A stretch of 54,411 nucleotides of DNA from a virus. Taxonomy: Duplodnaviria > Caudoviricetes. The translations under genes were made by a program, and so were the position numbers. Positions 4,732 through 41,676 of the stretch are shown here, piece after piece (positions within the stretch are counted from its first letter, which is position 1; the number at the start of each line of letters is the position of its first letter). Where the stretch lies: IMG/VR virus record IMGVR_UViG_3300032329_000297, positions 1-54,411 of that record. The stretch is one strand, 5' to 3'. The notes under the pieces were generated by a model, which saw only the letters and a program-made list of their open reading frames with translations, was not told the DNA's origin and ran no database searches.

Positions 4732-5363
4732 CAGTTGCTAGCGTTATGACGTATTCGTCACTGGTTGACGACATTGCGACCTACCTTGAGCGCAACGACA
4801 CGGCCACTCTGGACAAGATTCCGCAGTTCATCATGTTTGCGGAACAGGTAATTGCGTCGGAGATTAAATTCCTTGGAAACCTGACGGTGGCCAACGGGAC
4901 TATGACGGCCAACAATCCAATTCTGGACAAGCCTGCACGGTGGCGTAAGACCGTATCGTTCAACGTCACCACAGGCGGGGAGCGGATCCCGGTGTTCTTG
5001 CGTAAGTACGAGTACGTCCGGGAATATTGGCCAGATGACACCAAGACCGGTGTGCCTGCGTTTTACTGCGACTACGACTACACCCACTGGCTGGTGGCTC
5101 CTACCCCTGCGACCAACTACTCGTTTCAGGTTCTGTACTACGAGCGCAACCAGCCGTTGGATTCAACCAATCAGTCCAACTGGTTTACGCAGTACGCGCC
5201 TCAAGCGTTGCTTTACGGAAGCCTGCTGCAAGCCATGCCGTTCCTCAAGAACGACGAGAGAATCCCGGTGTGGCAGTCGATGTACGACAAGTCGATCGCC
5301 CTACTCAAGGAAGAGGATCTGACGCGGGTTGGTGACCGTCAAACCTTGGTGAAAGACTCATGA
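4728..5363 (+). CDS. Head-tail adaptor protein
   Basis: MTYSSL...IPQFIMFAE...P+LLYGSLLQA.PFLK pattern; position. Confidence 0.7.
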   Translation: MTVASVMTYSSLVDDIATYLERNDTATLDKIPQFIMFAEQVIASEIKFLGNLTVANGTMTANNPILDKPARWRKTVSFNVTTGGERIPVFLRKYEYVREYWPDDTKTGVPAFYCDYDYTHWLVAPTPATNYSFQVLYYERNQPLDSTNQSNWFTQYAPQALLYGSLLQAMPFLKNDERIPVWQSMYDKSIALLKEEDLTRVGDRQTLVKDS

Positions 5364-6667
5364 GTTACAACAGCCCATTTACGGGTAACGTCATCCAGCC
5401 AACGGATGTTGCTTACGCATCCTATGCGCTAACGTCAACGACCGGTTCGCTTCAACTCCAGTGGCCGCTCAACGGTAACGACACTGCGTATGTTGCCGCG
5501 AGGGTGATGCAGGTTAGCACAACCAGCACGGCCTATGAGTTGTGGATGCCGCCTGCTGATCAGGTGTCTGTGGGTCAGGATGCACTGATCTACAACACCG
5601 GCACAGTCAAACTCAACATCAAGAGTTACGGCGGCCTGACGTCAATTTGTACGGTTGACACAAGTAGTTCCGGTAACGGTTCGGCGCAGTACATCTTCAT
5701 CACTGCAAACGCCAACAACTCAGGGACGTGGGGCGTCATAGCGTTTGGGTCATCAACGACTGCCGCGAGCGCTGTGTCGCTTGCCGGCGCCGGTCTGACG
5801 CCAATCTCAACGACTTTGAATGCTGCTTACCCTGCGGCTGCGATCTCCACCGGCATTACGTTCAGTTCTGCCGATCGTGCGGTTGCAAATTTTTGGGCCG
5901 GTGGTAGTGGGTCGGCGACTCTGCCTTCGGCTGCTTCTCTAGGCAACAACTGGTTCATGCTGTTCCGCAACAACGGGACAGGAACGTACACGATCAACTG
6001 TACGGGTTCTGACCAGATTGACGGGGCATCAAACAAACAATTCAATCCGGATGAATCGGCAATCATTGTCTGTTCAGGAACCCGGTTCTTTACGGTTGGG
6101 TACGGGCAGTCAAGTTCGTTCTTTTTCAATATTCTTGTCAAGACGGTCACGGCCGGGGCTTATTCACTCACGTCTTCGCAGTGCGCGAACATCATTCAAG
6201 AGTTTGTTAGCCCATCCGGTGGGTTGACGGGAAACGTCACCGTCACTTATCCGCCAATCGTCAACCTGTACGTCATCAGTAACCAGACGACGCCTAATGG
6301 CTACACGCTAACGGTTACGACTGGAATCACTGGTGGAGCGACTGCAACAATTCCGGCAAACGCTCAGGCCACTTTGGTTTGCGACGGAACAAACTTCTTC
6401 AACGCAAACACCGTACAGTCTGGCGGTACAACGTTTAGCATCGTTGACGGCACGGTAAGCGGACCAGCAATCTACTTCGGCAGCGAACCGACCACAGGTA
6501 TTTATCATCCGGGGTCGGGTGAATTTGGGGTCTCTGTGCTTGGTGTGAAACGCCTTGATGTGACGACCACCGGGATTGCCGTGACGGGCACTGGAGCGTT
6601 CTCAGGGGCTGTTTCAGGCACTACTGGAACGTTCACCTCTGGCGTCTCTGGCGGCACGTTCCCATGA
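5360..6667 (+). CDS. Tail/fibre-attachment structural protein
   Basis: Long T/S/G-rich ORF ending in SGGTFP. Confidence 0.65.
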   Translation: MSYNSPFTGNVIQPTDVAYASYALTSTTGSLQLQWPLNGNDTAYVAARVMQVSTTSTAYELWMPPADQVSVGQDALIYNTGTVKLNIKSYGGLTSICTVDTSSSGNGSAQYIFITANANNSGTWGVIAFGSSTTAASAVSLAGAGLTPISTTLNAAYPAAAISTGITFSSADRAVANFWAGGSGSATLPSAASLGNNWFMLFRNNGTGTYTINCTGSDQIDGASNKQFNPDESAIIVCSGTRFFTVGYGQSSSFFFNILVKTVTAGAYSLTSSQCANIIQEFVSPSGGLTGNVTVTYPPIVNLYVISNQTTPNGYTLTVTTGITGGATATIPANAQATLVCDGTNFFNANTVQSGGTTFSIVDGTVSGPAIYFGSEPTTGIYHPGSGEFGVSVLGVKRLDVTTTGIAVTGTGAFSGAVSGTTGTFTSGVSGGTFP

Positions 6668-8915: not shown

Positions 8916-9160
8916 TGGAAACCAAAGAACTGATCAAGCAAACCAAGGACTTTATGAAGCAGCATCACTTGAATGCTGCGGAGATGAAACTTCTTGGCGA
9001 GTTGGCCGTTGACGCGATCGGCAACAACGAGGCTTACCAGCGGTTCCGTGAGACGGTGATTGAAGCCGGGTTCATGACCGATCAGGAACTCCCAGAAGAG
9101 AAGAATTACATGGTCCTGATGGCACTTGGGACCATGGGCGAACTGGCCGGAGAGAAGTAA
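8915..9160 (+). CDS. Hypothetical protein
   Basis: Coupled ORF. Confidence 0.6.
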   Translation: METKELIKQTKDFMKQHHLNAAEMKLLGELAVDAIGNNEAYQRFRETVIEAGFMTDQELPEEKNYMVLMALGTMGELAGEK

Positions 9161-12100
9161 TGGTAGCGGCAGTAGAACTTGATCCGGATGCTTTAGAGCA
9201 ACGAGAAGCCGCCAAAGCCGCACAGGCGGCCTACCTTGCCACGCCTGAAGGAAAGTTAGCCACGAGAGCGCAACAACTTTCTGGCGACTACGGCGATGTG
9301 AGGCAGGTTGACCCAAAGAATGTACCTGCAATCGAGGCTCTTCTCACGCAGATTGGAACCGAAAACGAAGCAACGAGGGCGATTGCCGCTACTCTTGCGC
9401 AGAAGTACGGGATTACTGACCTCAACGAAGTAGGAACAAGGCAGGGGACCAAGCAAGAATACGACCCCAATCAAGAAGCCTACGTCAATGTTCCGGCGAC
9501 TGAGTATTACAACAAGGTCACCAACGCGGCAATTCCACAGAACTTTGCCACTTACGATAATGGCAAGGCCACTTATTACTTTGGACTTGACACAACCAAA
9601 GACGGGAACCTGACGTTCAATCAACCTCAGCAGCCCAACCCGCGAGCCAGCGGAGAGTTCAAAGCAATTGCACTCCCCGCACTTGCGTTGGCCAGTCTGG
9701 CGTTTGATTGGTCTGGCCAGACGGGTTATGCCATCCTTGGCGCTGGAGATGCGGTTGCGGGGGCCGTAGCGGCCGGTGAGATGGCGGCATCAATATCTGC
9801 AGCCACCGGTATCACTGTCGGCGCCAATGCTATTGCAACCGGGATTGGCTCTGCGGCAGTTAACACTGCAACCACTTACGCTAGAACCGGAGACATTAAC
9901 ACCGCGCTTGCCACGGGGGCATCTTCTTTTGTCACGAGCGTCGGAAGTGCAGCAGCAGCAGGCACGGTTGGCGCTGCTTTAACTGCCGCAGACGTAAACC
10001 CAGCGCTGACTAATTATTTGTCTTCGGCAATTGCTGGGGCAACTGGCACTGCGTTGGCTGGCGGATCGGTTGACCTATCAAAGGTTGTCAATAGTGCATT
10101 GGCCACGGCGGCCAGCGTTGGGGTGACCAATGCTGCCACTCCCTACGTTGGCGCTGACGTAGCCAAAGGACTTGGCGCAGCCACCCAGACGTATATCACC
10201 ACTGGCAACACTGATGCTGCGATTCAAAACGGATTGTTCACCGGCGTTGGCTCTGCGCTCAAGGGCGCCTTGCAACCCAAGAAGTCTGACTATACCCAAG
10301 AGCAAATCAACAGCGGCAAGTACGATCAGGACCTGAAGAACTGGGCAACCATCAACCCAGAGTCTTCGCAGGCTGCCGGAATGGGTGAAACCGCCCAAAC
10401 ACCGATTGGGGCTACCAGCGCTGCCAATTACAACAAAACAGCGGGTGAATACACTTCAATTCTTAACGAACAAAATCAAAAAATCAATGAGTACAAAGGT
10501 TTTTATGAAAATCAATTTAAGCCGGTGTACGAGCAAGAAAAGTCGCTTGTCTCAAATATAAACGACAAAATAAATCTTTATAAAGATTACATTGCCAGAT
10601 GGAACGCAAACGACCCAGACGCGCCTCATTGGCGTGATGCGGCAAACAAACTTGCTCCAGAAATTCAAGCACTTAATTCGGAACTTGCCAACTTTCGCCA
10701 AGTCAATGCCCCGTTATATCAACAGCAACAAGAGTTATTTAGTGGAATTAAAGCATACGATCCAAAACTAAATGATCTGCAAACAACGCTTGATGCTCAA
10801 AGGCAACTCTTTCACACAGATCAAAGCACAACTGGCGTTGATGAAAACGGCGCACTGACGTACACGCCTGCTAGGTTTGACATTCAAAACCTCCCTCAAG
10901 TTGCATCTACTGGCAATTTGACTGGAATTGATTTTATTGATGAGCAGGGCGTTGCTCATGCAACTCTTCCACGAGTTGAGGTCACTGCAAGTTCAATTGA
11001 TAAGGCGTTTGAAAACGCACCAGACGTAATCAAGCAATTAATTGCCACCGGTGCTCAAGGGTTTGGCGAACAGATCACGACGTTTGCCAACGCTTACTCG
11101 GCGCTCACGGGCACTCCGTTTGGCAATGCTATGGCCAACATTGGCAACAACCTCAGCATCTGGGGCGCCAATCGAGACAGCACTGACCTAGCGGCACAAA
11201 CCAAAGCGTTCAACGCGGACCGTCAAAAGGCAGAGTCAATGCCTTGGTACGAGTCTCCCGGTTTTATTGTCAAGTCTGCAATGAAGAACCCGCTTGGGTT
11301 CATCTCTGAAGTTGGCAAAGAAAGAAGTCAAGAGATTGTGCCGGCGCTCGTTGGCGGGTTGGCTGCTGCTGCAGGCTTGTACTTTGGCGCTCCGATTGCC
11401 TCTGTTGCCGCGCTTGCTGCCGCCGGGTCTGCCCTGTCCGATGCGTTTGAGTCTTTCGGTTCTGGCGCAAAGGAAGCCTACGACGCTGCAATAAAGAAAG
11501 GGGCCACTGAACAGCAAGCCAGAAACACTGGAATCCTGAACGGAACCATTCATGCTTTGGTTACGGCGCCAACCGAATTCATTGCAGACAAGGCGCTGTT
11601 CAAAACCTACACAGACGGAATCACCAAAGGGCTCACTGGGCTGATCACTCAGTACGGCAGCGCAAACGTGCGCGAGATTGGTCAAGAGGTTCTTGAGACC
11701 TACGCTCAAGGGGTTTCCACTGCGTTGACTACCGGTCAACCAATTAACCTCAATGCTCTGACGGCGCAGGCGTGGACGGCCGGAATGGTCTCGTCTGGAA
11801 CTCATGCTGGCATGAGCACCGAGGGCGCCATCAAAGACGCGGTAGTGGCGAAAGACTTCAGCGGCAACAACGTCACGCTTGCTGAGATGACATCCGGGTC
11901 CAAGTTGGTTGACCCGAGCACGATGAGGGCTGACGCGGTGATTGGCACCGCGGCGAACGGAACAAAGCAAACCCTTGGCTATGCCATGGCGGCATCGAGA
12001 GATCTGGGGTTAACGACTCCAGAACTGTCGCAGTTCATGCCGGCGTCAATGCTGTCCAACGACCTTGTGATTGCCACGCTGCCGGGTGGCACCCCGGTAA

Positions 12101-14094
12101 CCATGGCCGACATGAGTCGGTTTGAGCAGACCGGTGGATCTCCGCAGACGTTCATGGAGAGCCTGTCAACCTCAAACCCGGTGGCGTTTGCAAACACCTA
12201 CGTCAGCCCGACTGCCTCGTCAACGGAAAGCCAGTTTCAGACCCAGACGTTCTTTGACAATTCGGTGGCCGCCAAAATCCAAGCAGGCGCAAGCCCTCTG
12301 GACGCCACCAAATCAACCTTGTCGTCGATGGGAATCCCTGCCAGTGGGGTTAACCTCACCGCACTGAGCCAGACGCTTGGAGGCCAGAACAATGCCGTAG
12401 CAGCGGTTACTACACCAACGACCGCACCGACGGGTGGAACTACAACCAGCCCCGCGGCAGGAGGAGCAACCACCCCCGCACCCGGCGGAACTACAACTAC
12501 GCCGGGCGGAACAACCGCAACACTTGGCGGAACAACGACCCCGGCTTCTGGTGGAACCACAACCGCGCCTGCAGGAACAACAACGACCCCTGTTTCCGGC
12601 GGCACAACAACGGCCGCAGGGACAACTACCCCTAGCGGAACGGCGACGACTACGCCGGTTTCTCAAAACACGATCGGTGCTGATGTAGCGGCAAACGCTA
12701 TCCGATCGGCTGGCATGGACCCGACGGGCATGACGCCGGCTCAGATGGATGATGCATTGGCCAAGATTGAGCCGGGTGCAAAGTTCACTGTAGTTCCAAC
12801 GGTCAGCGCAGCCACTGCGCCTACAACCACCGCGGCAATTACCGCTGCGACCGGAACAAACACTGCGGCAAATGCGGCAACAAATACGGCAGCCACGACC
12901 GGGGCAAACGCCGCAGCCAACGCCGCAACCAATGCCGCTAATAACGCTGCCACCGCTGTAACCACCGGGGTCAATCCTGCGGCGGCCACAGGCGCGGCGG
13001 TGACAACGGCCGTTAATAACGGTGCCAATACAAACACGGCCACTAACGCCGCGGTAACCGGTGCGGTGACTGCTGGGGCCAATCCAACTTCTGCTGTCAC
13101 TGGTGCCGTCAATGCAGCAACTGCAGCAGGCACCAATCCAACGACGGCAACCACGGTAGCAACTAACGCCGCCACAAACGCGGCAACCAACGTAGCGACC
13201 AACACGGCTGTCAATACCAACGTCAACACAAACGTCAACCCGAATGTCAATCCCAATGTAACAACCGGAGGAACAGCAACTAGTGCAAATGCACCACCTG
13301 CAACGGTTGCACCACCTGCAAGCGCCCCCCCGTCCAATGCAGCGCTTGACGCACTTCAGGCTCAGATTGCTGCGCAGAACAAGTTGATTGCGGACGAGGC
13401 TGCCAAAAAGAAGGCTGCTGACGATGAAGCCAACAGGGTTGCGTCGAACCAAAGAGCAATGCAGTTCCTTGCTCCTGCCGCCAAGCCTGCGTCATCAAAT
13501 AACGTGCTTCCGGCGGTGACGGCGTCTATAATTGGCGGTAAATCAGGGTTTGTTAGTCCGCTTGAAGCGTTTTCCAAAATGGTTCAAAAGGATCAATACA
13601 TCCCGCAACAGCAACAACAGCCCGAGGGGGCTCTCATGCAGGCTTCTCCTTACGCTTACGGAAAACAAACTGACTTAAACGAAATTTTTGGTCTCAATGA
13701 CCAACAAGATCAAGTTGAGCAGCAGGCCAAATCCGGAGGACTGATGACCCCTTTAATGGCCACCGGCGGGACTACCCGGTACGGAAAGTTTGCCGGGGGT
13801 GGGTTGAATGTGGTACACCATGCTGGGAAGATGAGGGTTGACTTCAGGAGCGGTGACGCCGTTACCGGAGCCGGAGACGGGCAGTCTGACGACATCCCTG
13901 CCATGCTTGCTGACGGAGAGTTTGTGATTCCTGCGGACGTTGTAGCGGCTCTTGGCAACGGTTCAACGAAGGCCGGGTCTGATGCCCTCTACGAGATGAT
14001 GCATTCGATCCGGGCCCGTGCTCGCAAGGGTCACCCCAAGTCATTGCCACCACCGGCCAAGTCGCCGCTGGACTACATTAGCAAAAGGAAGTAA
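9160..14094 (+). CDS. Large internal virion/ejection protein with low-complexity T/A/N region and C-terminal G.GDG.SD.IPAML.DGEFV domain
   Basis: 1644 aa; hydrophobic Ala/Gly segments; C-terminal domain resembles that of tape-measure/ejection proteins. Confidence 0.7.
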   Translation: MVAAVELDPDALEQREAAKAAQAAYLATPEGKLATRAQQLSGDYGDVRQVDPKNVPAIEALLTQIGTENEATRAIAATLAQKYGITDLNEVGTRQGTKQEYDPNQEAYVNVPATEYYNKVTNAAIPQNFATYDNGKATYYFGLDTTKDGNLTFNQPQQPNPRASGEFKAIALPALALASLAFDWSGQTGYAILGAGDAVAGAVAAGEMAASISAATGITVGANAIATGIGSAAVNTATTYARTGDINTALATGASSFVTSVGSAAAAGTVGAALTAADVNPALTNYLSSAIAGATGTALAGGSVDLSKVVNSALATAASVGVTNAATPYVGADVAKGLGAATQTYITTGNTDAAIQNGLFTGVGSALKGALQPKKSDYTQEQINSGKYDQDLKNWATINPESSQAAGMGETAQTPIGATSAANYNKTAGEYTSILNEQNQKINEYKGFYENQFKPVYEQEKSLVSNINDKINLYKDYIARWNANDPDAPHWRDAANKLAPEIQALNSELANFRQVNAPLYQQQQELFSGIKAYDPKLNDLQTTLDAQRQLFHTDQSTTGVDENGALTYTPARFDIQNLPQVASTGNLTGIDFIDEQGVAHATLPRVEVTASSIDKAFENAPDVIKQLIATGAQGFGEQITTFANAYSALTGTPFGNAMANIGNNLSIWGANRDSTDLAAQTKAFNADRQKAESMPWYESPGFIVKSAMKNPLGFISEVGKERSQEIVPALVGGLAAAAGLYFGAPIASVAALAAAGSALSDAFESFGSGAKEAYDAAIKKGATEQQARNTGILNGTIHALVTAPTEFIADKALFKTYTDGITKGLTGLITQYGSANVREIGQEVLETYAQGVSTALTTGQPINLNALTAQAWTAGMVSSGTHAGMSTEGAIKDAVVAKDFSGNNVTLAEMTSGSKLVDPSTMRADAVIGTAANGTKQTLGYAMAASRDLGLTTPELSQFMPASMLSNDLVIATLPGGTPVTMADMSRFEQTGGSPQTFMESLSTSNPVAFANTYVSPTASSTESQFQTQTFFDNSVAAKIQAGASPLDATKSTLSSMGIPASGVNLTALSQTLGGQNNAVAAVTTPTTAPTGGTTTSPAAGGATTPAPGGTTTTPGGTTATLGGTTTPASGGTTTAPAGTTTTPVSGGTTTAAGTTTPSGTATTTPVSQNTIGADVAANAIRSAGMDPTGMTPAQMDDALAKIEPGAKFTVVPTVSAATAPTTTAAITAATGTNTAANAATNTAATTGANAAANAATNAANNAATAVTTGVNPAAATGAAVTTAVNNGANTNTATNAAVTGAVTAGANPTSAVTGAVNAATAAGTNPTTATTVATNAATNAATNVATNTAVNTNVNTNVNPNVNPNVTTGGTATSANAPPATVAPPASAPPSNAALDALQAQIAAQNKLIADEAAKKKAADDEANRVASNQRAMQFLAPAAKPASSNNVLPAVTASIIGGKSGFVSPLEAFSKMVQKDQYIPQQQQQPEGALMQASPYAYGKQTDLNEIFGLNDQQDQVEQQAKSGGLMTPLMATGGTTRYGKFAGGGLNVVHHAGKMRVDFRSGDAVTGAGDGQSDDIPAMLADGEFVIPADVVAALGNGSTKAGSDALYEMMHSIRARARKGHPKSLPPPAKSPLDYISKRK

Positions 14095-14096
14095 TC

Positions 14097-15041
14097 ATGG
14101 GCTTCGCTCAAGGTGATCCGTTACCGGACGTAACTAAGACCACGACGACGGTCCAGAACGCGCCGTCTTGGTACACCGACGTAACCAAGGGACTGTCAAC
14201 CGCAGCAACAACTAACCTTGCTCGAACCGGGGCGCAATCGGTTGCCGGGCTAGATCCTCTTCAGACGAAGGGATATGGTCAAGTTGCCGGGGCTGCTGGG
14301 TCGTACGTTCCGGAATTGACAAATGCCGAGGCTACGGCTGCAGGAGCGGCTAAAGGTATTGATTACAGCAAAATTCAGGACTACATGGATCCGTATCGGA
14401 ACCAAGTGGTCAATGAAATGGCGCGGTTAGGAAACCAGAACTTCCAACGTAACGTCTTGCCGGGTTTGGCCGGACAGTTTGTTGGAACTGGTGGTCTTGG
14501 TAGTCAACGGTTTGCAAACGCCGCAGGACAGTCGGCAACGGACTTTCAATCAAACTTGCTAGGTCAACAAACTGGCGCTCTGTCCAAGGCTTACAGTGAC
14601 GCTGTGAACGCTGCCAAAGCCCAGTCGGAGTTGCAGAACAACGCCGCAATAACGCAGGGCAACCTTGCAAGCAAGGAACAAGAACTTGGCCTGACCGGCG
14701 CTGGTGCTCTAACGAAAGCCGGCGGGGAACTGCAGAAGTACCAGCAGAGCATCCTTGATGCACCGGCGCTCAATGCTAAGAATGCTTCTGATTTACTGCG
14801 TGGGTACACTTTGCCAACCGATCAAACCGTCAAGTTTGTTGGCCCTGACGCTGGCTCTTACAGTTCGTCTGATCTTTCAAACATTCTTGGCGTAGGTTCA
14901 CTTCTTGGTGGATTCAAAGATAAAAGCACTGGTAGTGATTTTATGAATTGGCTAGGCCAAAATGCCGGTTCCCTAAGCAAAGAAGCATTAGGTGGGTTGA
15001 AAAACATATTCAGCGGAAGCAACGGCACGCCTCCCATTTAA
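14097..15041 (+). CDS. Ejection/DNA-transfer (pilot-like) protein
   Basis: Q/A/G-rich; YMDPY..QV and GG.GS.R motifs. Confidence 0.65.
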   Translation: MGFAQGDPLPDVTKTTTTVQNAPSWYTDVTKGLSTAATTNLARTGAQSVAGLDPLQTKGYGQVAGAAGSYVPELTNAEATAAGAAKGIDYSKIQDYMDPYRNQVVNEMARLGNQNFQRNVLPGLAGQFVGTGGLGSQRFANAAGQSATDFQSNLLGQQTGALSKAYSDAVNAAKAQSELQNNAAITQGNLASKEQELGLTGAGALTKAGGELQKYQQSILDAPALNAKNASDLLRGYTLPTDQTVKFVGPDAGSYSSSDLSNILGVGSLLGGFKDKSTGSDFMNWLGQNAGSLSKEALGGLKNIFSGSNGTPPI

Positions 15042-15063: not shown

Positions 15064-16893
15064 ATGGCAGAACCAAAAGGCGGTCTTGGCTACATTGGGG
15101 ACAACCCCAAAGCCATTGAAGACTCAGAAGCCGCTCTTGAAAGACTATCTAAGGCTTTGGAGTCACGCGGGGGCGGTATGTTCGACCCCCAGATGTTGGC
15201 ATTGGCTGAAGGTTTTCTTGCGCCCACTCGCAGCGGTGGATTTGGTGAGTCGCTAGGTAATGCTGCCAATCGCCTGCGCCTTGCTCAAGAGTCACAAGGC
15301 AAACAAGAAATTGAAAACGCTCAAGCGCAACTTGGTTTGATCCAGCAAAAGGCTGCGCTTGAACAGCAGCGGTCGGCTGGTGCCGGGTATAAAACCCTTG
15401 AAGAAGAATATGGGTTACGTCCTAAGGCACCTCCCGTTGGCACTCCTATGGAGGCCCCAAAAGCAATTTCTGTTGGCCAGCCTGTTGTAGGTCAACCTGA
15501 ACCAGCAACGTCTTCTATGTTCAACATGGAGATTCCGTTTGCGACACCAGCGCCAGTGGACAAGGCCGCAATCATTGCGAAGAACAAGGCCGCCGGAGTT
15601 GTTAACCCTGCAATTACAAGGTTGGAAATTCAGAAAGCCGAGCGCGACAATATTGACATGAAGGAAGGTTTTATTCTTGACCGCAATACCGGCAAGATTC
15701 GGTTGATTCCAAAGTTTGGCGAGGAGGATGTTCAAACTTACATCCCCGCATTTGAGGGGTTTGGCGGTGGAAACTTGAAGGTCTCAAAGGGCCTCAAGAG
15801 CGCTATGGATTACGCTGCGCAGTCTGGCAGCCCAGCGTATTGGGATCTGGCCAAACTTGCGGTTAACGGCCCTCCTAAACCCTCAGCGCAGCAACCAGAA
15901 GTGCAGCGTGCGCCTGCAGGACCTACTGCTGCACCGGGCGTACCGTCACCCACTCAGGTCGGTGCCGTGCAAACTGCAGCGCCAATGAAGGTGGAGCCAC
16001 TGCCACCGATGGAAGGCGTCAAGGGTGCTGTGCCACCGCCTGCTGCGGCCGCTGCACCACCTGCTGCTCAACCTGCCGCTCCTCAAAGGCGCCAAACCAT
16101 CGAAGAGGCTGAGGCCGCAAAGGCACGGCGTGAGATGGAGTTGCGTCTTGAAGAAGAGCGTAAGAAGGGTGAGCAAAAGGGCAAGCAAGAGAGAAGCGAA
16201 ATTCGTCCGGCTGCTTTAGAGAAGCAGGCTACTGAACAAGAAATAAATGCTCGAAAAGAAATTGCCGACAACAGTAAAGAGGCAAATGACACAATTTCGT
16301 TTGCCAACCAGTTTAGAAAATACGCCGAGTTGCCCGGCGCAAATAAAATGTTTGGCATTTTGAATAATGAAAAAATTTCTTCTGGAATTGCTGAACTTGT
16401 TGCAACCGGCGTTGGTGTTACAGGATATACAATTGGCATACCTGCAATTGAAAATGTCATGCGCAAGGCAAACTTGACTCCGGCTGAACAAGCACAGTAC
16501 AGGAGTTTTTTGCAACTTACTACTCAGTTGCAGTTGCAGCAGGCCAAATACATGAAAGGTTCGGTTAGTAACTACGAACGCACAATTGTTGCTGATGCTG
16601 TAATTGGACCCCAAGATACGCCTGAATCAATTCGCATGAAAGCGGACATTATGGCTGCTCGCGCCCAGTTTGATCGTCAAGTCGCAAAAAGATTCAAAGA
16701 CTCAAAACAAGACGCTGCTGCGTTTTTGTCGTCTGATCAATATCTTAATGAAATGATTCCAACCTATCACGATCGCTTGGCTCGATTGATTGGTGGTGAA
16801 ACAAGGTTGCAATCAAAACCTCCGTCACAACCGAAAACTCCGGCGCAAGGTTCTACAATTCCTCGTGCTGACGCTTTAGCGGGGATCAAGTAA
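15064..16893 (+). CDS. Ejection/internal virion protein
   Basis: LAPTRSGGFGESLG motif; G.VSNYE C-terminal motif; position. Confidence 0.6.
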   Translation: MAEPKGGLGYIGDNPKAIEDSEAALERLSKALESRGGGMFDPQMLALAEGFLAPTRSGGFGESLGNAANRLRLAQESQGKQEIENAQAQLGLIQQKAALEQQRSAGAGYKTLEEEYGLRPKAPPVGTPMEAPKAISVGQPVVGQPEPATSSMFNMEIPFATPAPVDKAAIIAKNKAAGVVNPAITRLEIQKAERDNIDMKEGFILDRNTGKIRLIPKFGEEDVQTYIPAFEGFGGGNLKVSKGLKSAMDYAAQSGSPAYWDLAKLAVNGPPKPSAQQPEVQRAPAGPTAAPGVPSPTQVGAVQTAAPMKVEPLPPMEGVKGAVPPPAAAAAPPAAQPAAPQRRQTIEEAEAAKARREMELRLEEERKKGEQKGKQERSEIRPAALEKQATEQEINARKEIADNSKEANDTISFANQFRKYAELPGANKMFGILNNEKISSGIAELVATGVGVTGYTIGIPAIENVMRKANLTPAEQAQYRSFLQLTTQLQLQQAKYMKGSVSNYERTIVADAVIGPQDTPESIRMKADIMAARAQFDRQVAKRFKDSKQDAAAFLSSDQYLNEMIPTYHDRLARLIGGETRLQSKPPSQPKTPAQGSTIPRADALAGIK

Positions 16894-19363: not shown

Positions 19364-19505
19364 GTTCCTTCCCTTTGTTTTCGCCCACGATCACGAACGG
19401 GTGGGCTGGTTTGTTTTGCTTGAGATGGCCCTCAATCCACTTGTTGAGGTTTTTCAGGTCCTTGTTGAAAAGGACCCTATCCTCTTTGTCGAGGACGTTC
19501 CTCAT
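19335..19505 (-). CDS. Hypothetical 56-aa protein
   Basis: Translated by hand (MRNVLDKEDR...); fills an operon gap. Confidence 0.5.
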   Translation of the reverse strand: MRNVLDKEDRVLFNKDLKNLNKWIEGHLKQNKPAHPFVIVGENKGKEHDRCQSKNQ

Positions 19506-19873
19506 TACTGATAACGAGCCTCAGCAAACCTGATCAACTCAATCAGGTCGCTGAACCGTGGGTTCTTGAACTGGGGCCGGTCCCAAACAAATGCGGCAAT
19601 CTCATCTATCGTCAACGGTCGCACCGACTCAGGTGGCGGTGGTGGCTCAAACCCGGTGGCCAGCCAATCATGGTCAACCTTGAGGTACTCAGCAGCCTGC
19701 AGGATCACATCGTAAGGAGGCAGTTTTTTGACCATCCTTGCGTTCTCGTAGTGGCCAACCATGGTTGGATGGCAACTCATAATGTAACTCAGTTGGTCTT
19801 GAGTTCTGTTTGCCTTGGCTCGCGCAATTTTAAGGCGTTTGCCAAAATCGATAAGGTTTTGTTTCGTAGTCAA
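19505..19873 (-). CDS. XRE-family HTH protein
   Basis: FGKRLK.AR...TQ.QL...YEN...V..DWLATG. Confidence 0.85.
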   Translation of the reverse strand: MTTKQNLIDFGKRLKIARAKANRTQDQLSYIMSCHPTMVGHYENARMVKKLPPYDVILQAAEYLKVDHDWLATGFEPPPPPESVRPLTIDEIAAFVWDRPQFKNPRFSDLIELIRFAEARYQ

Positions 19874-21054: not shown

Positions 21055-21115
21055 TGTAACACCATCATTCTGAAGTTACAAGGTCAGTTGCACAGAATCC
21101 AAAACCGTGTAAGAT
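21053..21115. promoter_or_regulatory. Divergent sigma70-like promoters with an inverted-repeat operator
   Basis: Leftward TTGTAA(21081-76)-N17-TACAGT(21058-53); rightward TTGCAC(21088-93)-N16-TAAGAT(21110-15); inverted repeat TGTAAC...GTTACA. Confidence 0.65.
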
Positions 21116-21140
21116 GAAGTTTCACAACAGGGGAAAGCGA

Positions 21141-21344
21141 ATGACTCTACAAGACTACTTTTCAGACAAGGAGCACGGCGCGAAGGCAGCGCTGGCGCGG
21201 GATTTGGGCATCACGAAGACGTGGATGTCGATGGTCATCAACGGCCGCGTCACGCCATCAGCGACGTTGTGCCTTGAGATCGAACGGCGCACCGGCGTGC
21301 GTAGGGAGGTTCTACGGCCAGACTTGTTCGGAGAAATCCTGTGA
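21141..21344 (+). CDS. Cro/YdaS-like HTH regulator
   Basis: LARDLGIT...IER.TGV.R..LRPDLF motif. Confidence 0.85.
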   Translation: MTLQDYFSDKEHGAKAALARDLGITKTWMSMVINGRVTPSATLCLEIERRTGVRREVLRPDLFGEIL

Positions 21345-33108: not shown

Positions 33109-33183
33109 AGCGTGCCCATATGTTGTGCAGCCCGCTTGATATCAGAGTATTGTTACGGCGTCTAGCATTAACGGGAGGTAGGT

Positions 33184-33336
33184 ATGCCAAGTGACGAATT
33201 GCAGGGGTACTGCACAAACTGCAAGAAGTTGTTCAAGGTGAAGTGGTCAGAAACGATCTGCCCTGAGTGCGAGCACAAACCAATGAAGGAAGTGCTTGAC
33301 TTCCCTGAGGAAGATGGGCTATCGTTGCAAGCGTGA
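33184..33336 (+). CDS. Small zinc-ribbon protein (CTNC...CPEC, 50 aa)
   Basis: Translated by hand; RBS GGGAGG. Confidence 0.55.
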   Translation: MPSDELQGYCTNCKKLFKVKWSETICPECEHKPMKEVLDFPEEDGLSLQA

Positions 33337-33355
33337 GGAGTGGAACACCTTGCAA
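33296..33355 (+). promoter_or_regulatory. Promoter and a1/b1-type target hairpin for the antisense RNA
   Basis: TTGACT-N18-TATCGT; stem TTGCAAG/CTTGCAA presenting TGAGGA-GTGGAAC. Confidence 0.65.
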
Positions 33356-33359
33356 TGAG

Positions 33360-33452
33360 AGCCGTTAAGCCTGATCCCGACCCCGTATGGGGTTCCTCAA
33401 AGGTCACAAGCCTTTGTGTGGTTCCACCGGGGTCAGACTTAACGGCTTTTTT
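33360..33452 (+). ncRNA. C4/CI-like antisense RNA
   Basis: Long stem 33360-79/33428-47; hairpins ACCCC-GTAT-GGGGT and CACAA-GCCT-TTGTG; single-stranded TCCTCA and GTTCCAC complementary to upstream TGAGGA and GTGGAAC; T-run after. Confidence 0.75.
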
Positions 33453-33722
33453 GCGTTCTGCGCCTGACCCTTGCCATGCGGTACGTCGGTGGTGGCATTG
33501 AATAACCCCGTTACACGAGCGAGCCAGAGCGGGGGCGGTGGGCGAAGTCTAGAGCCGGGTGGTTGAAACAAGTCTGGACAGCGTGAGCGATAACAGACCC
33601 ATGTTGTCGGAGCGCAGGCGAACTTTAGTCCTCTGGCTACGGTAAGGCTGCGCTTTGCTCCTCCATCCCCATGCCTACTTATACATAATCACAAGTATAT
33701 GATATATAAAGAGAATATATAG

Positions 33723-39132: not shown

Positions 39133-41676
39133 ATGGCCACCGAGTTCCCGATTGATCCCGAATACAACAGGTTTGTTGACGGCGAACCGCAGGACGCTGG
39201 CGCTGAAGAGCCCGGCGAAGAGATGAACCTTGAAGGTTCAGAGATTGAGGAACTGCCTGACGGGTCTGCTGTAGTAACTCTGCAGACAGAAGGTCCGCTA
39301 GATAACGAGGACTTCTACCAGAACCTCGCGGACAGTGCGGACTTCGACTTCATCGAACTTGACGGGATTGCCCTGCAATACATTGAGTATGCAGAGAAGG
39401 ACAAAGAGGCCCGGAAGGAGCGCGACAAGCAGTACGAGGATGGCATCCGGCGCACTGGCTTGGGTAATGACGCACCCGGCGGGGCCAATTTCAACGGTGC
39501 AAGCAAGGTAGTCCACCCGGCAATGGCCGAGGCTTGCGTTGATTTTGCTGCGCGGTCCATCAAGGAGATGTTCCCGCCTGACGGTCCGACCAAGACCAAG
39601 ATTTTGGGCGACGTTGACGACGAGAAAACCAAGTCGGCCGAGCGCAAAGTTGAGTTCATGAACTGGCAGTTGACTGACCAGATTGAAGAATTTAGGGATG
39701 AGCAGGAGCAGATGCTCACGCAGTTGCCTTTAGGCGGCAGCCAGTACATCAAACTCTGGTACGACGAGAAAAAGAAGCGCCCGTGCGCTGAGTTTCTGCC
39801 AATTGACAACGTCCTAATCCCGTTTGCGGCCGGAAATTTCTATACGGCCCAACGAGTTACGGAAGTTCACGACATTTCCGACTACGAATTCAAGAACCGT
39901 GTGCGTTCTGGACTGTACCGGGACGTGGATTTTGTCAAAACTAGCATTGAGCCGGAGCAGACGGGGCCGCAAAAGGCCACCGACAAGATTGAGGGCAAGC
40001 GTTCTGGCGACAACGAAGACGGAATCCGGCGTGTATACCATGTCTACACATGGTTGGAACTGGATGATGACCCCTACACCAAGGGTGAGAGTGCTCCGTA
40101 CATCCTGATGATTGACGACCAGAACACTGAGGTGATTGGTCTGTACCGCAACTGGGAGGAAGGCGATGAAACAATGGCCAAACTCGACTGGATTGCGGAG
40201 TTTAAGTTTATCCCGTGGCGAGGCGCTTATGCTGTTGGGCTGCCTCATCTTATTGGTGGTCTATCTGCTGCTCTTACAGGGTCTCTGAGAGCCCTTCTGG
40301 ACACCGCGCACATTAGTAACGCAGCCACGATGCTGAAACTGAAGGGTGCAAAAGTCTCGGGGCAGTCGCAGCAGGTTGAAGTCACGCAGGTTAACGAGAT
40401 TGAAGCAGCGCCGGGGGTGGATGACATCCGCAAACTGGCCATGCCGATGCCGTTCAACCCGCCGAGCCCGGTTTTGTTTGAGTTGTTGCAGTGGCTGACG
40501 CTGCAGGCCAAGGGTGTAATCACCACCGCGGAAGAAAAGATTGCGGATGTTAACTCCAACACGCCTGTTGGGACCACTCAGGCGTTGATTGAGCAGGGCG
40601 CGGCTGTTTTCTCGGCCATTCACGCCCGTTTGCATGAGTCGCAGGGCAAAGTTCTCAAGATTCTCAGCCGAATCAATCGTTGGTATCTCGACGACATGAG
40701 GAAAGGCGAGATTGTTGAGGATTTAGAGATCCGGCGTGAGGATTTTGCCCGGATGACGGACGTGGTGCCGGTTTCTGACCCGCATATCTTCTCGGAAACC
40801 CAGCGGATGGCCCAAACGCAGGCCGTCATGTCTCTGATGGAGAAGAATCCGGACCTATTTAACCGCCGGGCGGTGCTGCAGCGCTTCTTGAAGCAAATCA
40901 AGGTGCCGGGCATCAACGAACTGATGACGGAAGTGCCATCGCCGGAAAAAGCGGACGCGGCAACGGAGAATGTGGCCATGACGATCGGTCAGGCAGCGTT
41001 TGCGTTCCCTGAGCAGGACCATCTAGCGCACATTCAGGCGCATTTGGACTTTGCCAAGGACCCAGTGCTAGGGCAGAACCCGTTAATCGCTCCTGCGTTC
41101 ATTCCCAAGGCCATGGACCACGTCAAACAGCACTTGACGCTGTGGTACTTGAACCGGATGAACGGGTACGTTGAAAAGGCAATGGGCAAAAAGCCTGAAG
41201 ACTATGACGACGTGCAGGATCCCAAGACCATGGACAAGTTGTACGGGGTTGCTTCGCAGCACGTCACCATGGACACCCAGCAGACGTTCCAAGGAATTAT
41301 GCAGGTTGTTCAGCAAATGGTTGAGGCGCAGCAGCAGTACAAGCCCAAGCCTGAAATGGACGCCGCGGATCAAGTGCTGATGCAGACCTCTATGGCCGAG
41401 ACGCAGCGCCGGGCGCAGCGCGATCAGGCCGAGATGCAACTGAAGGGTCAGGAGTCCAGTGCAAAATTGCAAATGGAGATGGCCAAGTTGCAGCAGAAAC
41501 AAGCCATGGACATGGAAGAGATGCAGTTGCGTCTGGCCATTGCCACTGGCGACATGAACATGAAGGAGCGCATTGAGTCGGCCCGTTTGACGCGGGACGC
41601 AGCAAGGCTCTCTCATGACCGCGAGAAGACCGCTTTTGAGTTAGTCAACCAAGGAGGCCAGTATGGCTACCAGTGA
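39133..41676 (+). CDS. Portal protein
   Basis: GAS.V.HP...EA...F.AR..KE.FP..GP; F.PW...Y..GL.HL.GG; PVGTT.AL.EQG..V.SAIH.RLH. Confidence 0.9.
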   Translation: MATEFPIDPEYNRFVDGEPQDAGAEEPGEEMNLEGSEIEELPDGSAVVTLQTEGPLDNEDFYQNLADSADFDFIELDGIALQYIEYAEKDKEARKERDKQYEDGIRRTGLGNDAPGGANFNGASKVVHPAMAEACVDFAARSIKEMFPPDGPTKTKILGDVDDEKTKSAERKVEFMNWQLTDQIEEFRDEQEQMLTQLPLGGSQYIKLWYDEKKKRPCAEFLPIDNVLIPFAAGNFYTAQRVTEVHDISDYEFKNRVRSGLYRDVDFVKTSIEPEQTGPQKATDKIEGKRSGDNEDGIRRVYHVYTWLELDDDPYTKGESAPYILMIDDQNTEVIGLYRNWEEGDETMAKLDWIAEFKFIPWRGAYAVGLPHLIGGLSAALTGSLRALLDTAHISNAATMLKLKGAKVSGQSQQVEVTQVNEIEAAPGVDDIRKLAMPMPFNPPSPVLFELLQWLTLQAKGVITTAEEKIADVNSNTPVGTTQALIEQGAAVFSAIHARLHESQGKVLKILSRINRWYLDDMRKGEIVEDLEIRREDFARMTDVVPVSDPHIFSETQRMAQTQAVMSLMEKNPDLFNRRAVLQRFLKQIKVPGINELMTEVPSPEKADAATENVAMTIGQAAFAFPEQDHLAHIQAHLDFAKDPVLGQNPLIAPAFIPKAMDHVKQHLTLWYLNRMNGYVEKAMGKKPEDYDDVQDPKTMDKLYGVASQHVTMDTQQTFQGIMQVVQQMVEAQQQYKPKPEMDAADQVLMQTSMAETQRRAQRDQAEMQLKGQESSAKLQMEMAKLQQKQAMDMEEMQLRLAIATGDMNMKERIESARLTRDAARLSHDREKTAFELVNQGGQYGYQ

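Follow-up and report, generated by a model that had tools for sequence, protein, structure and literature searches.

Here, we describe a gene for a small structured RNA, laid out like the C4 antisense RNA of phage P1, at positions 33296–33452 on the plus strand of the genome of an uncultured phage (Duplodnaviria; Caudoviricetes), and we weigh several explanations for the pairing between its leader and its own junction. The genome, called the window below, is the whole of IMG/VR record IMGVR_UViG_3300032329_000297, a complete virus record of 54,411 base pairs (bp) with direct terminal repeats; among cultured phages, the TerL proteins nearest to that of the window come from Caulobacter phages (39% identity). 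The antisense RNAs C4 (of phages P1 and P7) and CI (of the satellite phage P4) are textbook examples of RNA-based immunity in temperate enterobacterial elements, in which they are tied to antirepressor or replication operons. The fold plan of C4 and its recognition of a loop by a junction recur here in more than 90 distinct copies from uncultured phages, away from any integrase, antirepressor or downstream target that our searches recovered. At the level of sequence comparison, these copies establish the RNA as a real gene in which all five helices, including the co-varying pairing between leader and junction, are upheld by compensatory change. The RNA is absent from Rfam 15.

Layout and compensatory changes of the RNA gene

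The window copy is organized as follows, with the pair labels of the initial annotation (a1, a', b1, b') given in brackets.

33296–33325 (+): sigma-70-type promoter, with the -35 element TTGACT at 33296–33301, an 18-nucleotide (nt) spacer and the -10 element TATCGT at 33320–33325
33334–33351 (+): leader hairpin P0, which presents the target; its small stem pairs GAGG (33335–33338) with CCUU (33348–33351), as judged by homology
33334–33339 (+): UGAGGA (a1), mostly the 5' strand of the P0 stem
33340–33346 (+): leader-loop 7-mer GUGGAAC (b1), within the P0 loop
33359–33379 (+): 5' strand of the long stem, comprising 11 bp, a C/A mismatch (33370/33437) and 9 bp
33380–33393 (+): hairpin 1 (ACCCC-GUAU-GGGGU), abutting the long stem with no linker
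33394–33416 (+): UCCUCA (a') at 33394–33399 and hairpin 2 at 33398–33416, with the loop CACAA
33421–33427 (+): junction 7-mer GUUCCAC (b'), immediately 5' of the 3' strand of the long stem and complementary to 33340–33346
33428–33436 and 33438–33448 (+): 3' strand of the long stem
33447–33452 (+): U-run of six T which, with the long stem, resembles an intrinsic terminator

All of the motifs on which the initial annotation had built its case (TTGACT, N18, TATCGT, TGAGGA, GTGGAAC, TCCTCA, GTTCCAC and the T-run) are confirmed at these positions. The same promoter is listed independently by a promoter scan, with 9 of 12 matches, and it sits within the 3' end of a 50-amino-acid zinc-ribbon open reading frame (ORF; 33184–33336). 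Of 102 distinct upstream regions from relatives, 84, unrelated genomic contexts among them, contain a strict TTGACN-N16–19-TAnnnT promoter, and by eye the remaining 18 mostly hold near variants of it. Judged from the promoter spacing, transcription should start near 33331–33333, and the host-type promoter is predicted to drive a transcript of roughly 120–125 nt that ends at the stem and U-run. The base of the stem (GCCG/CGGC) followed by six U has the layout of an intrinsic (Rho-independent) terminator, termination itself being predicted, and a T-run of at least six follows the stem in all 56 distinct copies compared. This terminator is missing from a simple terminator scan because that scan takes loops of 3–8 nt only. 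Within the 54-kilobase (kb) genome, the 13-mer TGAGGAGTGGAAC is single-copy at 0–1 mismatch. Among RNA-labelled data, eight runs contain a small share of the sequence words of the RNA, and contigs from four runs of four studies cover 33404–33674, with the limit that contigs cannot show transcript ends, that the libraries may hold DNA and that uncovered stretches carry no information. The contigs of three runs (X1, X4 and X8) span the U-run, some of them with other hairpin-2 variants at loose ends, and are no proof of a transcript.

The copies used for comparison were gathered both by synteny and by sequence pattern. With the divergent neighbouring gene, which encodes a metallophosphoesterase, as the synteny anchor, 589 IMG/VR relatives were obtained and 80 loci kept, and nhmmer found the RNA next to the metallophosphoesterase in 18 loci. 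A covariance model built from the window copy and these 18 neighbour-anchored copies detects the RNA in 19 of the 81 sources of the metallophosphoesterase set; in more distant metallophosphoesterase loci other genes occupy its spot, and by the same model it is absent from all 50 whole records of more distant phages. A pattern scan of IMG/VR in which the pattern fixed the junction returned 57 loci, and all 58 sources, the window included, were confirmed by the model; with the junction left free, the scan returned 64 loci, of which seven were new and all seven model-confirmed. The corresponding scan of metagenomes yielded 74 loci, 71 of them model-confirmed, and the three that failed the model, one of them on a 198-kb contig, were dropped. 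The pooled copies amount to 96 distinct sequences, 94 of which have a full leader. Covariation was measured in a viral set of 49 distinct copies and in a metagenome set of 55 distinct copies, in which the junction was not fixed by the pattern. No DNA match to 33150–33720 was found in the INPHARED phage collection, and no valid copy of the RNA in a collection holding one genome for each of 185,579 species. The sole pattern match in that collection, in a metagenome-assembled genome of Acidobacteriaceae, lies inside a 453-amino-acid ORF, fails the model and was rejected as chance.

When positions 33320–33455 are folded with RNAfold, a 5' hairpin and a long-stem cloverleaf enclosing two inner hairpins are obtained, at -65.5 kcal/mol against a shuffle mean of -40.3 (z = -7.13, with none of 200 shuffles as stable); the folded segment begins inside the -10 box, so that the outer 10-bp leader stem of this fold (33322–33331 with 33349–33358) is probably not all transcribed. 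Across the copies, 98.6% of the structure cells are paired in the viral set and 99.0% in the metagenome set. The covariation score of the 49 viral copies is reached by none of 500 shuffles, and sliding the partners against each other lowers pairing to 33–55%. All 20 pairs of the long stem are 99.5–99.7% paired, and six of them are changed on both sides in the viral and metagenome sets. In hairpin 1, from 93.5% (viral set) to 96.4% of the cells are paired and AU-to-GC changes are present, while the stem and loop of hairpin 2 differ among relatives. Folding of the leader alone places the 7-mer within the loop of a hairpin in 40 of 56 distinct copies; this loop mostly measures 6 nt, and its closing 3 bp occur in 13 different combinations.

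The long-range helix between leader and junction is maintained as strictly as the local ones are, with 99.7% of its cells paired in the viral set and 98.7% in the metagenome set. In the latter, three of the seven pairs are changed on both sides, with counts of GC 39/AU 13/GU 1, AU 39/GC 13, and AU 20/GC 19/CG 7/UA 6/GU 1, respectively. In 92 of the 94 distinct full-leader copies, junction 7-mer and leader loop are complementary at every position; of the two exceptions, one has a single G-U pair and the other a single mismatch. The pairs fall into eight classes, named here by the leader loop (GUGGAAG, GUGGAAA, GUGGAAC, GUGGAAU, GUGAGAG, GUGAGAA, GUAGAAG and GUGACAG), and in a cross-class control, leaders carry the complement of another class in only 14 of 7276 comparisons. 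Each of the seven loci that were found with the junction left free combines a new junction with a matching leader loop, the compensated pairs being GUGAGAG/CUCUCAC, GUGAGAA/UUCUCAC and GUGACAG/CUGUCAC. The co-variation of junction and target across relatives, which the initial annotation had proposed as a check, is thus present. The duplex that can be computed for leader and junction measures 7–9 bp, at -9 to -11 kcal/mol.

The initial annotation had described two complementary pairs, and of these it is GTGGAAC/GTTCCAC that co-varies in the manner just described, whereas TGAGGA/TCCTCA extends to 6 bp in only 3 of the 94 copies, which are of the type of the window. Contiguous Watson-Crick pairing of a1 with a' beside the b helix amounts to 0 bp in 24 copies, 1 bp in 45, 2 bp in 1, 3 bp in 20, 4 bp in 1 and 6 bp in 3, against 73%, 22%, 0.9%, 2.6% and 0.7% at 0, 1, 2, 3 and 4 bp in a control with mismatched partners. 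Judged from these distributions, a short extension of the pairing is real and the 6-bp version is a peculiarity of one lineage. By homology, both halves of UGAGGA/UCCUCA also take part in local stems, GAGG as the 5' strand of the leader stem and UCC as the foot of hairpin 2. On our reading of the connectivity, formation of both helices would create a four-way junction that has no unpaired bases and whose arms are the upper long stem, hairpin 1 and the two intermolecular helices. The antisense site would comprise the 7-nt junction and 0–3 bases (six in the window) on the other side of hairpin 2, and its only conserved partner appears to be the leader loop of the same transcript.

That this stretch holds no functional RNA, and is instead a chance hairpin-rich spacer or the mere terminator of neighbouring genes, is refuted by the covariation: the lack of an Rfam match is all that speaks for it, and it conflicts with the compensatory changes in five helices over 94 distinct copies, with the conservation of the promoter and with the orientation of the upstream gene, which lies on the opposite strand. 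The covariation is unusually clean, the eight-class long-range helix included, and makes the RNA well suited to compensatory-mutation work.

Likeness to C4, CI and IsrK

The C4-like architecture was checked against P1 itself, and the comparison upholds it. According to the P1 record and the Rfam structure line, C4 consists of a stem of 7 + 10 bp and two adjacent 5-bp hairpins; the 12-nt loop of hairpin 2 is complementary to b2, and the 7-nt 3' junction CUGUCAA complements UUGACAG, which lies in the loop of an upstream 4-bp hairpin (a1) and is repeated downstream (a2). The present RNA shares the long closing stem, the two adjacent hairpins and the placement of all junction bases on the 3' side. 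In both cases a 7-nt junction pairs with the 7-nt loop of a small upstream hairpin of the same transcript, the order is promoter, target hairpin and cloverleaf, and the pairing bases vary among relatives while the scaffold stays constant. In P1 naming, the 'b' pair of the initial annotation corresponds to the 'a' pair. When the model of the present RNA is run with filters off against 1 kb of P1 immI, its best match is c4, with the helices in register, albeit a weak one of 9.5 bits and a rough E value of 0.03. In one relative (L151, 791–907), the pair GUGACAG/CUGUCAC differs by one base per strand from P1 a1/a' (UUGACAG/CUGUCAA), a near-identity that may be chance or a trace of common descent.

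The two RNAs also differ in several respects. The loop of hairpin 2 is variable and 4–7 nt long here, compared with the 12-nt b' loop of P1, and there is one contiguous target in place of separate a and b sites. The a2/b2 target and the icd and ant genes of P1 have no counterpart, the carriers being without integrase or antirepressor, and the 3' end is a U-run terminator as opposed to a CCACC-type tail within a longer mRNA. According to two reports (PMC5320573; PMC5499578), RNase P releases C4 from a longer transcript by cutting where the 5' strand of the long stem begins, with the sequence GGW. In the present RNA the long stem begins with GAGAGCC, not GGW, and its 3' side leads into the U-run.

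The initial annotation had suggested a search with the Rfam models for C4 (RF01695, gathering score 45 bits) and c4-a1b1 (RF03163; clan CL00128), and this search came out negative. At the gathering score, no Rfam family matches anywhere in the whole window; at E ≤ 10, on 1.2 kb and on 146 nt, there is no C4-clan match and only chance matches of miRNA type are returned. None of 14 candidates reaches E ≤ 10 with the C4 model, and the c4-a1b1 model is likewise without a match at E ≤ 10, although a small hairpin with a loop complementary to a C4-like junction is present; the isrK model (RF01394) has no match in the window. Both C4-clan models do detect P1 (AF234172), where C4, c4-a1b1 and isrK score 68.8, 51 and 35 bits at the annotated c4, a1 and b1 sites. 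A precedent for divergent C4-like classes exists in the c4-2 motif, a likely distant c4 homologue according to a comparative-genomics study (Weinberg et al. 2017; PMC5737381), and no Rfam family of any name matches the present RNA. We therefore class it as C4-like in its way of working and leave it outside RF01695.

Other antisense RNAs resemble it in part. P4 CI is described as an untranslated RNA of the leader region that base-pairs with complementary sites on both sides of its own sequence, upstream and downstream, and so causes termination rather than affecting translation (PMC4825925). An upstream complementary site in the same transcription unit exists here too, but P4 has a downstream site (seqC) besides the upstream seqA, and no such site was found in 58 loci. 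A further difference from both P4 CI and P1 is that here the closing stem of the regulator itself doubles as the terminator. P4 CI controls replication genes in the lysogen, and its fold is one that we take to be similar to that of the present RNA. In the Salmonella Gifsy-1 prophage, IsrK carries a1b1-type hairpins followed by a Rho-independent terminator, and the processed downstream RNA STnc1160, which is complementary to the IsrK hairpins, is proposed to modulate that terminator (PMC4825925). The order there is target, terminator and C4-like RNA; here, the C4-like RNA is itself the terminator.

A true immunity function of the P1 type, in which a C4 homologue represses an antirepressor/kil operon and so maintains a (plasmid) prophage, is disfavoured and highly improbable. 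Besides the C4-like layout and the relative whose pair lies one base per strand from that of P1, it can draw on two genes that contradict the statement of the initial annotation that no repressor is visible:

19505–19873 (−): XRE-type helix-turn-helix gene, 122 amino acids (HTH_31, HTH_3)
21114–21344 (+): Cro/YdaS-like gene, 76 amino acids

These genes flank a divergent junction that is followed by primosomal, primase-helicase and RusA genes; the layout resembles the lambda switch, in a genome that has no integrase. Other observations run counter to immunity. No a2/b2 target is present, as the initial annotation had already noted: neither a conserved 6-mer nor a conserved 7-mer copy of the target occurs within 3 kb downstream in 58 loci. 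Its finding of no antirepressor or integrase likewise stands, since tyrosine integrase, serine recombinase, ANT and Bro-N domains are each found in none of five genomes (the window and four relatives that are at least 93% complete), and PHROGs recognizes no integrase among 30 ORFs of at least 90 amino acids between 17 and 29075. The RNA is followed by a non-coding stretch and not by an icd-like gene, and no copy occurs in the collection of 185,579 species described above. The suggestion that RNA-based immunity or late-gene timing had been repurposed here is not supported.

Self-pairing, proposed read-through and competing explanations

The reading that we favour, tentatively and with a little less than even confidence, is that of a C4/CI-like antisense RNA that addresses its own leader and whose pairing gates read-through of its own terminator. 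We take read-through to be the gated step because a second non-coding module, and then genes, follow the RNA at once. In the folded RNA the leader would lie at the foot of a stem of about 20 bp and the junction at its top; where the leader hairpin has 5 bp and the linker 2 nt, they should be unable to meet in one fully folded molecule. Pairing would therefore join separate molecules or else take place during transcription, as long as the lower stem, the actual terminator, is still open. On the nascent chain, leader–junction pairing in cis would compete sterically with closure of the lower stem, and polymerase would read on into the cargo module and the genes behind it. As finished RNA accumulates, it would occupy new leaders in trans and termination would be restored, in an antisense-dependent manner like that of P4 CI, as a dosage feedback. 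We infer the trans action, the effect on termination and the direction of that effect. The feedback would work on the principle that has been reported for P4 CI and suggested for the action of STnc1160 on the IsrK terminator (PMC4825925). If this reading is true, the RNA design would be a general portable control module and not a peculiarity of P1 and P4.

Several points weigh against it. Since both partners lie on one short transcript, their covariation would be expected just as much of a fold within a single molecule. The steric case is one of simple arithmetic, setting a stem of about 59 Å against leader linkers of 2–12 nt, and the transcript ends are predicted ones. Besides the lack of a conserved target downstream, no copy of the 7-mer stands at any gene start in the window genome when its positions are compared with the ORF lists. 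There is no second recognition loop of the kind found in C4, and no second, separate complementary site was seen. Since even a search of 146 nt at E ≤ 10 yields no matching Rfam family, kinship with C4 is unproven, and the likeness may have arisen by convergence. Finally, the differing genomic contexts in which the RNA occurs fit a free-standing, trans-acting RNA as well as they fit a cis gate.

The main rival, which we consider somewhat unlikely, is a structured small RNA in which the leader–junction pairing belongs to its own fold, as a long-range pseudoknot, and whose job in trans is another one (on a host or phage protein, in counter-defence or on a host mRNA), the terminator being a plain terminator and the next module a separate cargo. 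It accounts well for the fact that both partners are always found within one unit of about 125 nt, with no other conserved target in the regions searched; it also agrees with an RNA that has its own near-consensus promoter, moves between contexts, often lies beside tRNA genes or other non-coding RNAs and is matched by no Rfam C4-clan model. Less easily explained are variants with a 5-bp hairpin and a 2-nt linker (L089), in which the loop should not reach the junction 20 bp up unless the lower stem or the hairpin opens. Some read-through also seems to be needed, as the downstream module begins 4–13 nt after the U-run and no promoter is seen before it.

The apparently poor placement of leader and junction for a meeting in cis, with one loop and one matching junction in each molecule, would equally suit head-to-tail dimers or rings in which the leader loop of one molecule docks in the junction of the next. 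A duplex of the computed length and stability could serve as such an interface, and RNA-only assemblies of GOLLD, ROOL and OLE are reported in a preprint (bioRxiv 10.1101/2024.12.08.627333). We nevertheless regard multimers as improbable: there is no direct evidence for them, the RNA is small and has a single interface pair, and the eight classes are explained equally well by ordinary compensatory drift.

The downstream module and the genomic neighbourhood

The slot behind the RNA is occupied in the window by the following element.

33457–33674 (+): second conserved non-coding module ('type 1'), directly after the U-run

A conserved non-coding module fills this slot in nearly all loci. Eight further listed loci are 89–96% identical to type 1 over its first ~120 nt, and three more (L082, L085 and L094) match it at 88–90% over ~340 nt. 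Among 130 loci with at least 200 nt of downstream sequence (99 of them distinct), the slot falls into clusters of 59, 21 (the type of the window), 10, 4, 2, 1, 1 and 1. Stops occur in all three sense frames within the first 240 nt in each of the 17 sequences examined, the window module included. By eye, no promoter lies between the U-run and the downstream modules; since the gap of 4–13 nt holds none, the downstream module would need read-through or processing.

The cluster of ten corresponds to the Rfam family Betaproteobacteria-1 (RF02932), which is found at 97–107 bits directly after the RNA in 8 of 50 records of relatives and which, by eye and by clustering, also has a member in MW202545. 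These modules start 4–13 nt after the U-run, and two Betaproteobacteria-1 loci carry the RNA type of the window itself. Slots positive for RF02932 include L086 6130–6247, L128 357–474 and L116 6404–6521 (−). By eye, the window module has a similar three-hairpin layout with a GGUGG(G)CGAAG linker, but the RF02932 model (threshold 49.4 bits) does not recognize it, the only match in the window being an unrelated one of 7.6 bits at 40104.

The commonest module (59 of 99) begins with GCCGUACUCCGCACGAnAGCAAG, continues with a variable hairpin and then has GCGCGGAAGGAAA; it is longer than 240 nt, shows hairpin covariation by eye and occurs in L083 3150–3420 (−), L093, L110, L133, L147 and others. All of its sense frames contain stops, no Rfam family matches it, and it probably represents a structured RNA not described before. 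In an alignment of 13 copies (MAFFT with local RNAalifold), almost no consensus structure emerged. Folds of the downstream module are no better than those of shuffles, whether for type 1 in the window (z +0.17) or for the module of L083 (z -0.42), and neither region has an Rfam match. A GCGGAAG box in the commonest module was considered as a target of the junction and rejected, as it stays constant while the junction class changes.

We found no account of this RNA, or of its partnership with Betaproteobacteria-1, in the literature searched, a search that left aside the supplements of Weinberg 2010/2017, which may note the neighbouring RNA. The orphan family Betaproteobacteria-1 and two unnamed modules thereby gain a fixed upstream partner and a phage context, a first handle on their possible role. 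In its widest form, the reading that we favour would make the RNA a minimal riboregulator addressed to itself, a cassette of about 125 nt that unites antisense RNA, target and terminator; through the loop–junction pairing it would sense its own concentration and set how much transcription enters an exchangeable non-coding cargo (Betaproteobacteria-1 and at least two unnamed classes) and the genes that follow, in integrase-less phages that have no lysogeny to guard. In this extended form the proposal is possible but doubtful.

In the window, the RNA is preceded by TerS, TerL, an acidic ORF and the minus-strand phosphoesterase, and followed by a 64-amino-acid zinc-ribbon ORF, an LPD23 polyvalent protein and a DUF7178 protein. 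The placement given in the initial annotation, ahead of zinc-ribbon ORFs, a second RNA and the polyvalent/head operon, was correct as regards the second conserved non-coding module; it is not specific to the polyvalent/head operon, other contexts being found in relatives. The cassette occurs elsewhere directly after TerL or before TerS/TerL (L088), and in about 25 loci that share none of the 12 neighbour proteins of the window that were compared. In MW202545.1 (L143), it lies in the early region, flanked by genes for a primase-like protein and a 2OG oxygenase. Judging by these varied contexts, the RNA is a movable cassette. It also appears to sit preferentially in clusters of non-coding RNA genes.

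In MW202545.1 (5652–6160), two annotated hypothetical coding sequences (5882–6109 and 5652–5888) cover the RNA, which scores 92.5 bits, and a sequence that by eye is a Betaproteobacteria-1 RNA and that clusters with the RF02932-positive modules; both coding calls are likely wrong. A tRNA 3' end (T-arm and CCA, by eye) lies just upstream of the RNA promoter in the same record. In Caulobacter phage GB2A (L140), tRNA-Val (5329–5402) stands directly after TerL, where some relatives carry the RNA, and in a further locus (L113) a tRNA at 10092–10164 (−) lies 62 nt upstream of the RNA. The window itself has no tRNA according to ARAGORN.

The 50-amino-acid CxxC...CxxC ORF whose 3' end contains the promoter has tblastn matches in 4 of the 57 other loci compared. 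Relative to 18 aligned copies, from which it is absent, it represents an insertion of ~104 nt; its last codons contain the RNA promoter, and its stop codon is the TGA of TGAGGA. Elsewhere in the window, the large ORFs at 9160–14094 (1644 amino acids), 14097–15041 (314), 15064–16893 (609) and 5360–6667 (435) have no Pfam or PHROG match at the thresholds used. The TerL matches in four relatives (L125, L085, L094 and L106) come in two or three pieces that lie 1–2 kb apart, and the TerL of GB2A is split by a methyltransferase gene, which suggests inserted elements in the terminase gene.

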